A DNA stretch of 11,264 bases from Candidatus Baldrarchaeum yapensis (GTDB lineage Archaea; Asgardarchaeota; Baldrarchaeia; Baldrarchaeales; Baldrarchaeaceae), in contig JAEOSH010000063.1 of assembly GCA_016840465.1 (NCBI GenBank), forward strand, positions 1 through 11,264. The letters run 5' to 3'. Both the position numbers and the translations under genes were made by a program. Below, piece after piece: positions 5 to 9,531 of this stretch. How positions within the stretch are numbered: the stretch's first letter is position 1; each line of letters opens with the position of its first letter. The notes beneath the pieces were generated by a model. It worked only from the letters and a program-made list of their open reading frames with translations, was not told the origin of the DNA and did not search any database.

Positions 5-913
5 ATGTGTAATATTAGCGGCCCGGTGGTAATAGAGCCCGGCGGGAACATTTCTCTTCTAATTAATGGTACGGCAGTCACTCGTGTTGGTTTGCATCCG
101 GTATTTACGGTGGTGCGGTACAGCTACGAACTTTCAGGAGAGACCGTTCACACATGGACGCACTCTAACACAATATTAGGGTTCGTATTCCCGCCAATTG
201 AGAGAATTAACCTAACTTCTTGCCCGAAGCCATTCCCCGAGCCTGAAATTGTCATAGACAAGAATGTAGACATAAATTACAACAACGTCACCGTGCATCT
301 GAATGTTACGAACATGGGAGACGACACGGCGGTGCTGACGATCGTTGAGTACACCTCATGTGGTGACATCATTGCTGGCGATGTTACCGAGTGGAGTGAG
401 GGAATCCTAGAAAAGGGCAAGATGCTATGGCCCACTGAGGAAGGATGGTCGGTTATGAAGTTTGTCAGGGTGCGTCATGTTGTCCTGGAGCCCGGTGAGA
501 GTTTCACGATGACCTACTGGTATGTAATAAACGTTACTGGTCCGACGGAGATAATCGTACCAGCGACCGTTGTGCTATACGTGTCGAGGTACTCGCTAAT
601 GAGGGTGAACGTTACCACCAGTGAGGCGAGAGTGGCTGAAGAGAGCGGCATGAAATCGCTTGAGGAAACGTATTCGACCAAGGGGCTCATGAACATACTT
701 TCGCTCCCAACGAGCACCATAATGCAGGGCGAAGAGACCGAGAACTCGTGGGTTGTGTATAGCAATGCACTGGTCGAGGTTGTAGAACCCACACCGACCG
801 GCAAGGCAGCGCCGACCCCTACACAGGTTCCATGGCGACTCATAGGACTAGTTATTGGTATAGTGGTAATAGCGGTGGTAATTGCGATCTTCATGAGGAG
901 AAGGAGATTCTAA
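5..913 (+). CDS. Membrane-anchored cell-surface protein, C-terminal part (Ig-like/DUF11-CARDB-like beta domains, Pro/Thr linker, C-terminal TM helix); probably 5'-truncated by the window
   Basis: Frame is open from position 2, with no signal peptide in view. Beta-rich sequence includes IVIDKNV...VTVHLNVTNMGD (DUF11-like). Eight N-X-S/T sequons. Ends EPTPTGKAAPTPT-QVPWRLIGLVIGIVVIAVVIAIFM-RRRRF, stop TAA 911-913. Confidence 0.8.
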   Translation: MCNISGPVVIEPGGNISLLINGTAVTRVGLHPVFTVVRYSYELSGETVHTWTHSNTILGFVFPPIERINLTSCPKPFPEPEIVIDKNVDINYNNVTVHLNVTNMGDDTAVLTIVEYTSCGDIIAGDVTEWSEGILEKGKMLWPTEEGWSVMKFVRVRHVVLEPGESFTMTYWYVINVTGPTEIIVPATVVLYVSRYSLMRVNVTTSEARVAEESGMKSLEETYSTKGLMNILSLPTSTIMQGEETENSWVVYSNALVEVVEPTPTGKAAPTPTQVPWRLIGLVIGIVVIAVVIAIFMRRRRF

Positions 914-4987: not shown

Positions 4988-6199
4988 TCAATTATCACCA
5001 TTACCATATTTTATTTCGAATTTTTCGGCTCGTTCTAATGCAATCTCGACCATTCTTTCGATATCCAACTTTTGCTCCTCTTTCAAGACGACCCCCATTC
5101 TTGCTCGTGTAGATGGCCTCTTAGGAGCCGCAGCACACCCCTTCTCCTCCTCTGCAGAAATTTCGTAAGTTCCTATTCTTCGCGCCAGCCTTTCCGTTTC
5201 CACCTTTTCAAACGTTACAAGTGGTCTAATCACCGGTACGCCCTTTGTTGCTTCCTCTATTACCGCGAGATTATGTAAGGTCTGACTTGCCTGTTCCCCT
5301 ATTGCCTCTCCCGTAACTATTGCAACCGCCCCCTCCATTTCTGCAATTCTTTCCGCAACTCTATACATGACGCGCTTGCACAGCACACATGTGAGGTTGT
5401 CCATGCACTTATCCTTTATTTCTTGCAGGTTTTCGCCGTGCGGAACTATATAGACTCGCAGGGGAGTATTAAACATCCACTCGGAAAGTTTCCTCACAAG
5501 GCGCGTCACCTTATCTCTTGTCCGCTTATCTCCAAAGTCCCCTAGGTCGAAATGTAGGAACACGGGGATGCAACCACGACGCATCATAAGCCATGCGGCA
5601 ACGGGAGAATCTATGCCACCACTTATAAGGCAGACGACCCTCCCCTGAGATCCTATCGGGAATCCTCCCGGGCCTTCTATCGTTTCGAGGAAGATGAACG
5701 CTTTGTCCTCACGTATTTCGATTCCCATGGTGTACATCGGGTTTTCCAAATCAACTTTTAGGTTTAGATCTTTAAGTGAGGATAAAATTCTCTCTCCCAC
5801 GATTCTGTTCACATCAAGGCTCGTGTAGGGGTGCGTGCCAACTCTTCTACAGCGTACTGCAAACGTTGCATTCGGAATAAACTCTTCTTTTGCAAGGCTC
5901 ACACACACGTCCGCAATCTGATCGATGTCAGATGTTGTCGATATTGCGGGAGAAAAGGAGGAGATTCCAAACACCCTCGTCAGAAGTTCGGAGGCCTCGG
6001 ACGTCTCATTTGTAAAAAGATACGCCCGCCCGTAAGTGTACTCCAGTTTCTCAAACGAAACTGAGTGATGCTCCAAAAGCCTCCTTATGTAATCGCATAT
6101 CGACTTCTCATACCGCACCTTAACCCGCGGACTTTTCGTGCCGATCTCGCTGCCGAATCTTATTATTATGGCGTTATATTTTACTGGCAAGAAGTCCAC
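4988..6199 (-). CDS. thiI: tRNA 4-thiouridine synthase ThiI/TtuI (THUMP + PP-loop, Fe-S-type, no rhodanese domain)
   Basis: IIRFGSEIGTKS N-terminus; THUMP (TFAVRCRRVG..., VDLENP); PP-loop SGGIDS; CVLCKR (5378-5389); TGEAIGEQASQTLHNL; RPL; distal Cys in EKGC (5135-5137). GTG start. Confidence 0.95.
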   Translation of the reverse strand: MDFLPVKYNAIIIRFGSEIGTKSPRVKVRYEKSICDYIRRLLEHHSVSFEKLEYTYGRAYLFTNETSEASELLTRVFGISSFSPAISTTSDIDQIADVCVSLAKEEFIPNATFAVRCRRVGTHPYTSLDVNRIVGERILSSLKDLNLKVDLENPMYTMGIEIREDKAFIFLETIEGPGGFPIGSQGRVVCLISGGIDSPVAAWLMMRRGCIPVFLHFDLGDFGDKRTRDKVTRLVRKLSEWMFNTPLRVYIVPHGENLQEIKDKCMDNLTCVLCKRVMYRVAERIAEMEGAVAIVTGEAIGEQASQTLHNLAVIEEATKGVPVIRPLVTFEKVETERLARRIGTYEISAEEEKGCAAAPKRPSTRARMGVVLKEEQKLDIERMVEIALERAEKFEIKYGNGDN

Positions 6200-6202
6200 C
6201 CA

Positions 6203-7420
6203 TTACGAAACTTGGAGACCGTACTTCTCCGCGATTTCTATGAAGGCATTAGCGACGTACTTAACTTCGTCCCACGAGAGGCCGTAAGTGTTAAGTTTGA
6301 AGTGCTTGGTCATGCCAGGCTGTATTCCGACTATTTTCTTCTTCTTCAGTTCATGGTACAGGAAGTAACCCTTACGCTTGTGCTTCTGTGATATCTTGAA
6401 GAAACCCTCGCTTTCTATGTGTATCAACGTGTGTTCTTTGGGCTTTACTCCGAGTTGTCTCGTCCCCTCGATTCTCTCCATCTGTTCCACCAAGTACCTT
6501 GCTTTCTCAACCTCTTCGCTCCACCTTTTTACTCTCTCGACAACGTGCGGGAATGACGCCATGAGACTCACTATAGGCGCACCCATCACCGTACATCCGA
6601 GAAGTGCCAGTTCTTTCTGAGGAAAAGATCTCCCACTCCAATCTCCCACTATCTTCGACCTCGCCAGTATTATCTTCGCCATCTCCTCAGTCATTGCGAG
6701 TATTCCCGTCGGGGCGGATGCCGCCCAACTCTTATGCCCGCTTCCAACAAGGACGTCCACCTCCAACTCTTTACCATTTATAGGCATCAATCCGGCCGTG
6801 TATGCTGCATTTAACACAAAAGGAACATCGTAATCATGCGCTATCCTTGCCACCTTCTTAGCGTCATTGAGGTTCCCGTACTGGTAGTCGACGTGGGTCA
6901 GTAGGACTGCGACGGGGTATTCCCCTGTTTCCCTCTTCACCTCCTCTATCTTCTCGGCGTACACGTCCAAGTCCACTCTATACTCGGGGTAACCGCTGTT
7001 CGGAACCTCCTTTATCCTGAGCCCTGCCAGTTCGGCAGCAAGATATGTGGAGTAGTGCGCAAGGCTGTCTATCACGACATAACCGTCCTTTACTCCCCTG
7101 TGCCTCGCGAGCATGAGAAATGTTATGAACTTGGCCTCGCGGCACCTTGTCACTATACGCACCACATCCATTCCCAGAAATCTGGCCATGTCTTCGAGAA
7201 ACTGCTTTATGGGTGGCCTTTCTATCATATCAAGACGGGGAGTCTTGGCAGGGCACCAATCACAGACAGAGTATCCGTCACCAAATTCCAAAATCGCCCT
7301 TCTTGCCTCTTCGGTGAGTACACCACCGCGTTGTATTGGGTTTAAATTAATGTAGCCCGGCTTTGTAAACTCCCTCGTCAGATTTGTATACCTTTGTAGG
7401 TTCTGCTTTGGTATTTCCAC
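6203..7420 (-). CDS. pscS: O-phospho-L-seryl-tRNA:Cys-tRNA synthase (SepCysS)
   Basis: INLNPIQRGG, GDGYSVCDWC, LAHYSTYLAAE, LTHVDYQYGN, LNAAYT, PLP-lysine motif SGHKS, LLGCT, LMASFPHVVERVKRW. GTG start preceded by GAGGGGGT. Confidence 0.95.
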   Translation of the reverse strand: MEIPKQNLQRYTNLTREFTKPGYINLNPIQRGGVLTEEARRAILEFGDGYSVCDWCPAKTPRLDMIERPPIKQFLEDMARFLGMDVVRIVTRCREAKFITFLMLARHRGVKDGYVVIDSLAHYSTYLAAELAGLRIKEVPNSGYPEYRVDLDVYAEKIEEVKRETGEYPVAVLLTHVDYQYGNLNDAKKVARIAHDYDVPFVLNAAYTAGLMPINGKELEVDVLVGSGHKSWAASAPTGILAMTEEMAKIILARSKIVGDWSGRSFPQKELALLGCTVMGAPIVSLMASFPHVVERVKRWSEEVEKARYLVEQMERIEGTRQLGVKPKEHTLIHIESEGFFKISQKHKRKGYFLYHELKKKKIVGIQPGMTKHFKLNTYGLSWDEVKYVANAFIEIAEKYGLQVS

Positions 7421-7480
7421 CGCGATACCCCCTCGTTTCTGACCTTATATTCTCTCCTTAGGAACTATAAAAGGGTATAC
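7421..7480. promoter_or_regulatory. Compact divergent promoter region between pscS and the PP-loop gene
   Basis: Minus-strand TTTTATAG (7472-7465), the same 8-mer as the lysS TATA candidate. Plus-strand TTATAT (7445-7450). Central near-palindrome TCCT-T-AGGA (7455-7463). Confidence 0.5.
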
Positions 7481-8689
7481 TTGATGCACGGGACAGCTAT
7501 CGAATGCAGGCGCTGTCCACTTGACGACTCATTCGGAGACTTCCTAGCGGTCGTTGAGGGAGATATGAAGTTCAGGCTTACTAGGGTGAAAGTTTCTCCG
7601 CAGAGCGGATTGTGTAACCTTTGCGAAAGATTCCTCAGGGACGCGGGGAGGTTTTTCGAACTCAGAGATTTGGCAAGACGAGAAATGAGGAAGTTGTTCG
7701 AGCGCGTGAGAAAGGAAGGTCACCAATACGATGCAGTTGTCCTTCTAAGCGGAGGCAAGGACAGTTGTGCGGCTCTTATTCTCGCAAAGGAACGGTACAA
7801 GCTAAATGTGGTTGCCGCCAGCGTAGATAACGGATTCAGAATACCCGAGGCTGCCGAGAACATAGAGAATCTTACAGATAATCTTGGTGTGGACCTTATA
7901 ACATTCAAAATCCCGAGATCCCTCACAAAGAAACTGTTCCGGGTGTGCTTCGAGATCGGAGATCCGTGTGGGCTCTGCCAGACGCTCGTAGGCCCACCCA
8001 TCATGGCGAGAATTCAAATGAAGATGGGCATACCGATCAGAATTCTGGGCACAGATCTGGCGCAAGTCTATCACGAGTTTTTCATGCAACTGGATTACTG
8101 GAGAAAGAAAATAGGCATGGAGAATCCCTTTCTCTTCCGCCTATATAGCAACGATTACAAGATTTATGAGCGGAGATACGAACAGTACATCGATCTTCTG
8201 CGTAGAGAAATGCTTTCTGAGGCGTCGACCCTCTACGTGAGAGAACTTGAGCGCATTTACAAAGACCTTAGAAAGTACTGGCTGTCACCTGGAGAACTAT
8301 CTGAATTCTCACAGGAGAATTTTGTAAACGTGTACCTTACCGCCATGGAGATTACAGATTACTCCCAACAGAAAAAAATCCTCGAAAGGTACGGTTTTCA
8401 ATTGTCACCCGTATTCGGAGAACACGTATCCACAGATTGTAAGGTTGCGGCGGTTGCACAGTCCCTCTATACCGAGAAAATGTGGAAGGCCTTGAACTCC
8501 TGGAAGTGTCGGGTAGGCCTCATTTCCAAGCACGAAGTGCTGAACCTGATGAGAAATCGGCGGGCCCCTATTCCCACGATCAGAGAGTTCTTCGAAGAAA
8601 TAGGCGTGAAAAACATAAGGAATGTGTGGCAGCGAGCGTGGCTATATCAGGTGTTTGATAAGGATATTTTAGCGAGGATCTTTATGTGA
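7481..8689 (+). CDS. Cys-rich PP-loop (adenine nucleotide alpha hydrolase) enzyme, WbuX/N-acetyl-sugar-amidotransferase-like fold; substrate unknown
   Basis: N-terminal CRRC (aa 9-12) and CNLC (45-48); YDAVVLLSGGKDS; VDNGF..EAAENIENL; GDPCGLC (163-166); STDC (C320); RVGLISKHEVL. Start is TTG 7481 or ATG 7484. Confidence 0.8.
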   Translation: MMHGTAIECRRCPLDDSFGDFLAVVEGDMKFRLTRVKVSPQSGLCNLCERFLRDAGRFFELRDLARREMRKLFERVRKEGHQYDAVVLLSGGKDSCAALILAKERYKLNVVAASVDNGFRIPEAAENIENLTDNLGVDLITFKIPRSLTKKLFRVCFEIGDPCGLCQTLVGPPIMARIQMKMGIPIRILGTDLAQVYHEFFMQLDYWRKKIGMENPFLFRLYSNDYKIYERRYEQYIDLLRREMLSEASTLYVRELERIYKDLRKYWLSPGELSEFSQENFVNVYLTAMEITDYSQQKKILERYGFQLSPVFGEHVSTDCKVAAVAQSLYTEKMWKALNSWKCRVGLISKHEVLNLMRNRRAPIPTIREFFEEIGVKNIRNVWQRAWLYQVFDKDILARIFM

Positions 8690-9249: not shown

Positions 9250-9267
9250 GGACTTCTGTTGTGTTAA

Positions 9268-9452
9268 GCGGGCTCCGCCCGGGATGTGGGAGGGGCGGTG
9301 AGAGGGAGGGAAGCCCGAAAGGGCGGAGCGAAGGGTCAGATGGATGTGCGGAGCACCGTTCCCCGCGAAAGCCCGTCGATGAACCCCGAGGCGGGAAGGC
9401 TCTCCGCTACAAATGCATCAAAAATCGTGAAAGTAGCGGAGAGTCAGAACGG
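9268..9452 (+). mobile_element. Non-autonomous tnpB-derived (IS200/IS605- or IS607-type) mini-element: left-end/leader fused to right end
   Basis: Abrupt GC-rich island. The 5' part has hairpins (CCGCCC/GGGCGG; GCCC-GAAA-GGGC) and ends AAGGGTCAGATG. The 3' part (9343-9452) aligns structurally with the tnpB 3' end at 11124-11023. Exact boundaries are uncertain. Confidence 0.7.
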
Positions 9453-9472
9453 CTCATAAAAGTACCGTCCGT
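9343..9472 (+). ncRNA. Putative stand-alone omegaRNA (TnpB guide RNA): scaffold ~9343-9452 plus ~20-nt guide
   Basis: Stem GCGG/CCGC with an 11-nt loop containing CCGTTC (9356-9361), which is complementary to GAACGG (9447-9452) and would form a pseudoknot. 13-bp terminal stem GGCTCTCCGCTAC/GTAGCGGAGAGTC (9398-9410/9433-9445). Confidence 0.6.
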
Positions 9473-9531
9473 ACTTCGACAAAATGGATTCCGTGCAGGA
9501 TCTATGTAATGTTCGCACAGCTCCGCTACAA
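9402..9531 (+). repeat. 11-bp direct repeat CTCCGCTACAA, each copy forming the 5' arm of a hairpin
   Basis: Exact copies at 9402-9412 and 9521-9531. The second hairpin is GCTCCGC-TACAAG-GCGGAGC (9520-9539). Confidence 0.6.

Follow-up and report, generated by a model that had tools for sequence, protein, structure and literature searches.

The 11,264-nt stretch of DNA analysed here (hereafter the window) is contig C27 of a 2.27 Mb, 96%-complete Asgard genome of the class Baldrarchaeia and carries the gene of a PP-loop enzyme that faces pscS and thiI. An earlier note on this DNA had proposed the enzyme as a candidate new sulfur insertase, on account of cysteines laid out as in TtuA and of a promoter region shared with these two genes. 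The question raised by the locus is whether the enzyme places sulfur, ammonia or something else on an adenylated substrate.

Gene prediction and sequence motifs

The coordinates of the gene, of its motifs and of the neighbouring sulfur genes are collected in Table 1. Since TTG 7481 directly adjoins ATG 7484 and the database gene call is of 401 aa, the ATG is considered as the likelier start. All the motifs that had been read from the sequence were recovered by regular-expression searches, namely the paired N-terminal CxxC (CRRC at residues 9-12 and CNLC at residues 45-48), SGGKDS, CGLC and a distal Cys (TDC at residues 318-320, the third-Cys motif being S-T-D-C); the same searches found neither the GH..DD nor the RPL motif of TtuA in the 402-aa protein, and both had indeed been reported as missing.

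Table 1. Features of the PP-loop enzyme gene and of the divergent sulfur genes in the window
Feature	Position	Strand	Basis or remark
PP-loop enzyme gene	7481..8689	+	ORF translation of 402 aa, 0 internal stops
N-terminal zinc ribbon (predicted), C9xxC12 ... G43-L-C45xxC48	7505..7624	+	Regular-expression search
PP-loop SGGKDS, residues 90-95, ATP pyrophosphatase signature	7748..7765	+	Regular-expression search; conserved in orthologues
C163-G-L-C166, triad residues one and two	7967..7978	+	Profile alignment to TtuA (5mko) and MmLarE (8cnz); hhalign
Helical insert, ~residues 195-285	8063..8335	+	Alignment; secondary structure of the model
D319-C320, third triad Cys	8435..8440	+	Invariant among orthologues; structural alignments to LarE and TtuA
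pscS (SepCysS)	6203-7420	-	NCBIfam SepCysS, 522-577 bits; start GTG 7420
thiI	4988-6199	-	NCBIfam ThiI, 338 bits; operon with pscS
Divergent intergenic region	7421..7480	.	60 bp common to pscS and the PP-loop enzyme gene (60-63 bp by start chosen)

In an alignment of 13 orthologues (28-43% identity), the PP-loop and residues C163, C166, D319 and C320 never vary, and conservation reaches 90% or more at C9, C12, C45 and C48. As all seven Cys of the motifs are kept in orthologues at 30-44% identity, the pattern is not due to chance. Conserved positions were also found in the helical insert (N215-P216-F217 and Y266).

Fold and family assignment

Pfam matches of the enzyme (QueC, PAPS_reduct and NAD_synthase) cover residues 72-160 and correspond to a generic PP-loop N-terminus only. 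PF01171 and the TtuA and NcsA models are not among its Pfam and NCBIfam matches, a genome-wide PF01171 search found three other genes and not this one, and Pfam detected no RNA-binding domain. The NCBIfam model TIGR03573 (WbuX) gave 83.2 bits for a cut-off of 203.2, aligning residues 41-199 to model positions 20-177 only, a match that leaves the helical insert out; the weak likeness to WbuX that had been pointed out is thus correct.

An AlphaFold2 model was built from 140 relatives, with a mean pLDDT of 92. Its top structural match is 8wex, the NASAT of Legionella (Z 21.9, rmsd 4.9, 333 residues, model residues 2-395); TtuA, NcsA and LarE come next at Z 10-12.5 over a ~200-residue core, in the same order with Foldseek, and matches at Z ~10 include the nitrile synthetase ArtA, argininosuccinate synthase, TilS and YcfA. 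The family profile matches 8wex with an E-value of 1.3e-53. The NASAT hallmark, defined from LpNASAT 8wex, is a zinc-binding tetracysteine CXXCXn[GN]XCXXC combined with a PP-loop (PMC10607449), and the enzyme has both the tetracysteine and SGGXDS (as SGGKDS). The four N-terminal Cys are kept in 151-161 of the 166 family members (profile matches) and, since the two CxxC pairs match the zinc motif of NASAT, this four-Cys ribbon is predicted to be a structural zinc site outside the catalytic cluster. The PP-loop enzyme belongs to the WbuX/NASAT PP-loop superfamily as a divergent member, which agrees with its earlier description as an uncharacterised WbuX relative without a glutaminase partner.

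PP-loop enzymes span many reactions, and the Z ~10 matches to ArtA, argininosuccinate synthase and TilS would also suit another chemistry of nitrile, lactam or ligase type, or a decaying relic without catalytic activity. Such outcomes are considered very improbable: the reading frame is uninterrupted, neither the PP-loop nor the Cys triad varies at 30% identity and the pLDDT is 92, signs that would rather argue for a functional enzyme with the adenylate-and-substitute chemistry usual in the family.

Homology of the Cys triad to Fe-S ligands

Using the family profile, C163xxC166 aligns on C128xxC131 of TtuA PH0300 and on the CxxC of Methanococcus MmLarE, and hhalign placed it on the CxxC of the LarE and NcsA-like proteins of the same genome (96% probability). 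Structural alignments pair model residues 69..330 with 11..183 of the LarE chain 5uds, and residues 60..325 with 32..221 of the TtuA chain; from these ranges, C320 of the model would fall approximately within ~3 residues of Cys176, the third-ligand position of Fe-S-type LarE (PMC9283937). By profile, hhalign and structural alignments, the TtuA-like layout that had been claimed is therefore a homologue of the TtuA and LarE Fe-S sites. Among the NASAT-like ORFs (71 ORFs were screened from the collected loci), the triad is either all present or all absent, which indicates that the three Cys act as one unit. By analogy with these enzymes, C163, C166 and C320 are predicted to be, most likely, the ligands of a [4Fe-4S] cluster in which one iron stays free.

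The triad is not, as had been supposed, a special feature of this enzyme but a family-wide one, present in 162 of the 166 best profile matches, including members above the TIGR03573 cut-off. Canonical NASATs were taken from annotated plasmids, since none of the control genomes encodes a canonical WbuX. The triad is absent from 8wex and from the plasmid NASATs of Spirosoma, Agrobacterium and Alistipes; the Spirosoma and Agrobacterium genes lie with hisH and an AglZ/HisF2 gene, and the Alistipes gene sits in a nonulosonate locus. A Rhodobacteraceae NASAT that has the triad overlaps hisH-hisF.

Context classes of the family

Context classes were established from a survey of ~60 loci. Members with the motif GDFCWHCH...K[VI]EC are translationally coupled to HisH and HisF in 5/6 loci, and a triad-less derivative (L060) keeps both partners. 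Members with GEFCTPCN...HGDC lie in glycan loci (GT2, GT4 and epimerase genes), one of them coupled to an AsnB-type glutaminase. Members with S..C..C...S[ST]NC are found with carrier proteins and AMP-ligases, or inside NRPS modules. The Asgard clade to which the window's enzyme belongs and a second Asgard group (MKICDNCT...KTNC) have no HisH/HisF, glycan or carrier-protein neighbours. These classes (HisH/HisF, glycan, carrier-protein/NRPS and orphan) matter for annotation, since members are now named QueC, PAPS reductase, TilS or sugar amidotransferase nearly at random.

As the triad also occurs in the hisH-hisF-coupled subgroup, it does not by itself imply sulfur insertion, and it is compatible with ammonia chemistry. 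The window's enzyme could accordingly be an ammonia-dependent amidotransferase (amidine synthase) that would adenylate an N-acyl carbonyl and replace its oxygen by NH3 from solution; the triad would then be a family heritage, serving as a metal site with a structural or Lewis-acid role. That its closest structure and nearest family are NASAT would fit this proposal, as would the translational coupling of triad-bearing relatives to hisH-hisF and the position of the nearest glycan-type relatives (GEFCTPCN...HGDC) among GT2, GT4 and epimerase genes, with the AsnB-like glutaminase beside one of them. It is the main rival of sulfur insertion, but is judged less likely. A glutaminase, HisF2 or glycan gene accompanies the enzyme in 0/18 orthologous loci and the genome has no AglZ/WbuZ; the substrate-side half lies beyond the reach of TIGR03573; and L060 lost the triad while keeping its partners, so that amidotransfer would leave the invariance of the triad in the clade unexplained.

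Several observations were made on the other subgroups. In the CWHCH subgroup (L008, L015, L053, L057 and L086), a His is invariant after the second Cys, and L060, in which none of the three Cys is left (TWHYH...DD), still has HisH/HisF; the site of this subgroup is perhaps a four-ligand zinc rather than an open Fe-S cluster. NRPS modules of ~1,380 aa contain a whole NASAT-like PP-loop domain, triad included, which is inserted into the adenylation domain between its core and its C-terminal subdomain (order C - A - [PP-loop] - PCP); examples are L031:5253-9395 (Wocania arenilitoris), the P0116 cluster (Algoriphagus), L029, L030, L032, L058 and L059. Triad-bearing stand-alone PP-loop enzymes annotated as QueC (L088:6690-12909 on the B. 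thuringiensis HD1002 plasmid, L027, L028, L051 and L054) are encoded in cassettes that also contain ACP/PCP, a pair of adenylate-forming enzymes and, in many cases, AsnB.

Phylogeny and distribution

A phylogeny was inferred with FastTree on sequences chosen by similarity to the clade, using TtuA, NcsA and LarE of this genome as root. In the rooted tree, the Asgard clade (39 sequences, support 0.97) lies near the base of the NASAT-like family, the 18/18 triad-less sequences are nested in a crown group of 131, and one basal node has a support of 0.25. In an unrooted tree, the clade groups with the carrier-protein subgroup and the second Asgard group at a support of 0.96. As the sampling is biased to clade relatives and the basal node is weak, the phylogeny is used as supportive only of the view that the clade may be an early-branching, Asgard-only lineage of the NASAT fold, this fold being itself the sister of the TtuA/NcsA/LarE insertases.

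Full-length relatives are few, a Baldrarchaeota group at 41-44% identity and a second group, from Helarchaeota and metagenome contigs, at 30-34%. The clade is restricted to Asgard archaea (Baldrarchaeia and Helarchaeota). The gene was found in 3/5 Baldrarchaeia genomes, including both of those with a completeness of 90% or more, and in 2/151 genomes of the class containing Helarchaeota, and is a rare accessory gene. The isoelectric point, which is 8.2-9.4 for most clade members vs a median of 8.9 for sugar-type relatives, does not separate the two.

Gene neighbourhoods

The enzyme and pscS are divergent and, as had been reported, about 60 bp apart. Two AT-rich TATA-like boxes lie in this interval, TTATATT near 7444 and CTATAAAAG near 7466, and are considered as putative promoters. 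The pscS and thiI genes are separated by 3 nt, and their ThiI has no rhodanese domain and is of the Fe-S type (CVLC and a distal Cys). Two genes from SepCysS, the window encodes a class II, bacterial-type lysyl-tRNA synthetase (1260-2756, + strand, 637 bits to PRK00484). An 82-aa ORF at 9261-9509 has no family match and is probably spurious.

Orthologous loci were gathered for comparison (18, the window included), representing ~10 independent contexts. Neither pscS nor thiI was found beside the orthologue in any of the 17 other loci. The promoter shared with pscS-thiI, which had served as the argument for a sulfur function, is thus a linkage unique to this genome, an outcome that the earlier note had itself named as counting against its proposal. 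The idea of a link to sulfur genes holds in a weaker form through another locus (L042), where the gene of a distant orthologue, which falls in the clade's other main branch and not in that of the window's enzyme, faces an operon for TusA, DsrE, a class V aminotransferase and NifU_N/IscU at a distance of 293 bp; this operon may be a general housekeeping IscS-IscU operon for Fe-S assembly. Sulfur-gene neighbours are therefore present in 2/18 loci and were noticed after the fact. Two sulfur contexts in ~10 neighbourhoods exceed chance expectation according to a rough, post hoc estimate (P ~0.003, assuming that such genes make up <1%), and these neighbours are weakly suggestive of a sulfur insertase. 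The same metagenome contig, of Helarchaeota type, carries a gene of RNA polymerase subunit B with an intein (L042:12134-16975, Intein_splicing at residues 476-958).

HisH/HisF, AsnB, glycosyltransferase and carrier-protein genes were found beside orthologues in 0/18 loci. In the window, Pfam and NCBIfam searches likewise found no HisH/HisF and no glycan gene, as had been stated. The neighbours at the remaining orthologous loci are unrelated housekeeping genes. Synteny in Baldrarchaeota holds at the level of the lineage only, with a cupin gene upstream (unlinked in this genome) and a DUF169 gene downstream. A B12-radical-SAM gene lies near five loci of Helarchaeota type at varying distance and orientation; its recurrence was given no weight, because two copies occur in one locus and the gene may be one of a multi-copy family. 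Proteins of ~320 aa encoded divergently upstream in L022 and L025 were rejected as a conserved partner, being unrelated to each other.

Sulfur-transfer and amidotransferase genes of the genome

The same genome encodes ThiI, an NcsA-like protein, TtuA (E 5e-67 to PH0300) and LarE (298 bits), so that the PP-loop enzyme is an extra one that replaces none of them. Homologues of TusA and DsrE were not found in this genome by phmmer. The genome-wide search (96% complete) for an HisF2 of the AglZ/WbuZ type was also negative, the best scores being 45 bits vs 310 for AglZ and 42 vs 300 for WbuZ. A third HisA/F-like gene, on contig C19, was rejected as an AglZ/WbuZ partner, as it is of the hisAF_rel type (TIGR00734-like) and lies beside an MfnB homologue.

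This MfnB homologue, a (5-formylfuran-3-yl)methyl phosphate synthase, scores 354 bits, above the cut-off (L097:2649-3449 and 6740-7549 for the contig C19 genes), and its proximity to the hisAF_rel gene hints at the synthesis of a methanofuran-type cofactor in this Asgard genome. On contig C55, the NcsA-like gene, a class V aminotransferase gene and LarE lie within ~10 kb (L080, L082 and C55:11843-13156) and form a second small sulfur-transfer gene cluster of the genome.

A narrower version of the sulfur reading is that of a tRNA or rRNA thiolase acting at a site beyond those of ThiI, NcsA and TtuA, for instance of 2-thiocytidine type. The fold is related to that of TtuA, the neighbours in the window are tRNA-related (LysRS, SepCysS and ThiI), a THUMP methyltransferase and a tRNase Z-like gene are found nearby in another locus (L041), and most members are basic. 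However, this reading is considered improbable: genes for ThiI, NcsA-like, TtuA and LarE are already in the genome, a clade present in 3/5 Baldrarchaeia and 2/151 genomes of the Helarchaeota class is too patchy to resemble a core RNA modification, pI values are not above those of the sugar-type relatives (median 8.9), and no RNA-binding domain was detected.

Proposed reaction

The favoured reading, quite possible though held with reserve, is that the PP-loop enzyme is a stand-alone, Fe-S-dependent sulfur insertase, for which sulfur is the presumed nucleophile. The PP-loop would use ATP to adenylate a substrate carbonyl oxygen (amide or carboxylate). A hydrosulfide carried by the free iron of the three-Cys [4Fe-4S] cluster, and fed by a cysteine desulfurase/persulfide relay, would then attack the adenylate, and AMP would leave to give a thiocarbonyl product, for example a thioamide. 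The proposed mechanism is the one common to TtuA, Fe-S LarE and CtaC, and supposes that the enzyme would bind a cluster. Among these precedents, Fe-S LarE works with IscS (PMC9283937), and CtaC, a PP-loop enzyme that has a structural zinc (predicted) and a [4Fe-4S] cluster on three Cys (C154, C157 and C284), swaps an amide oxygen for sulfur using ATP and sulfide to form thioamides in closthioamide biosynthesis (PMC6772006).

This insertase reading draws on the order of structural matches, on the CxxC falling on known ligands, on the triad behaving as a unit and on the basal position of the clade. It also draws on the 18 loci devoid of HisH/HisF, glycan and carrier partners and the genome devoid of AglZ/WbuZ, on the two distant orthologues that face sulfur genes and on the precedents of CtaC and LarE. 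Against it stand the occurrence of the triad in the hisH-hisF-coupled subgroup and in the glycan-locus subgroup adjoining AsnB, the restriction of sulfur neighbours to 2/18 loci and the lack of TusA/DsrE in this genome. The substrate is unlikely to be one of the known tRNA thiolation sites or a nucleotide sugar of a glycan locus. A further proposal, possible but more doubtful, is that the enzyme would be the fifth Fe-S PP-loop sulfur insertase of the genome, a living intermediate between insertases of tRNA type and sugar amidotransferases. Its product would be a thiocarbonyl, for instance a thioamide or thioacid, and its substrate would come from a class (cofactors, metabolites or proteins, for example) for which thiolation is not yet known in archaea.

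If the sulfur reading is true, a sulfur compound for which no one has searched is made in Asgard archaea by means of an enzyme placed between two known families; if ammonia is the nucleophile, the gene is an ordinary orphan amidotransferase. For the family as a whole, the survey indicates that the CxxC...C site of WbuX-like enzymes is ancestral and common to TtuA and LarE, and that several amidotransferase lineages have lost its three Cys together.

Comparison with known systems

YcfA-YcfC (9kq6/9kq7), of the 6-thioguanine pathway, is a case of thioamide formation by a PP-loop enzyme that receives its sulfur from a PLP-dependent partner. YcfA (~220 aa), matched at Z ~10, differs from the window's enzyme in having no zinc ribbon and no NASAT C-terminal half, and no Fe-S cluster is described for it in the main text of its report.

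CtaC belongs to the chemistry class proposed for the window's enzyme. It acts only on carrier-protein-bound peptides, and its homologues lie in thiotemplate clusters, a context like that of the QueC-annotated ACP/PCP cassettes, whereas a carrier protein or NRPS was found near 0/18 of the orthologous loci studied here. Short peptides derived from the published CtaC primers gave no decisive match that would place CtaC in a subgroup, and starting a search from the B. thuringiensis plasmid homologue did not connect it to one either.

The NASATs (WbuX, WbpG and LpNASAT) have in common with the enzyme the overall fold, the zinc tetracysteine, SGGKDS and a C-terminal S340/R344/G346 motif. In contrast with them, the enzyme is recognised by the family model in its N-terminal half only, adds the helical insert of ~90 residues, and has neither a HisH/HisF2 partner nor a glycan locus.

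TtuA, NcsA and Fe-S LarE differ from the enzyme in that they match it (Z ~12) over the core only, its C-terminal half being NASAT-like, and TtuA differs further by the two motifs that the enzyme lacks. They have in common with it the PP-loop, followed ~70 residues on by a CxxC and then by a distal Cys; TtuA also has an N-terminal zinc finger, and the LarE of the same genome has S-T-T-C as its third-Cys motif, resembling the S-T-D-C of the PP-loop enzyme.
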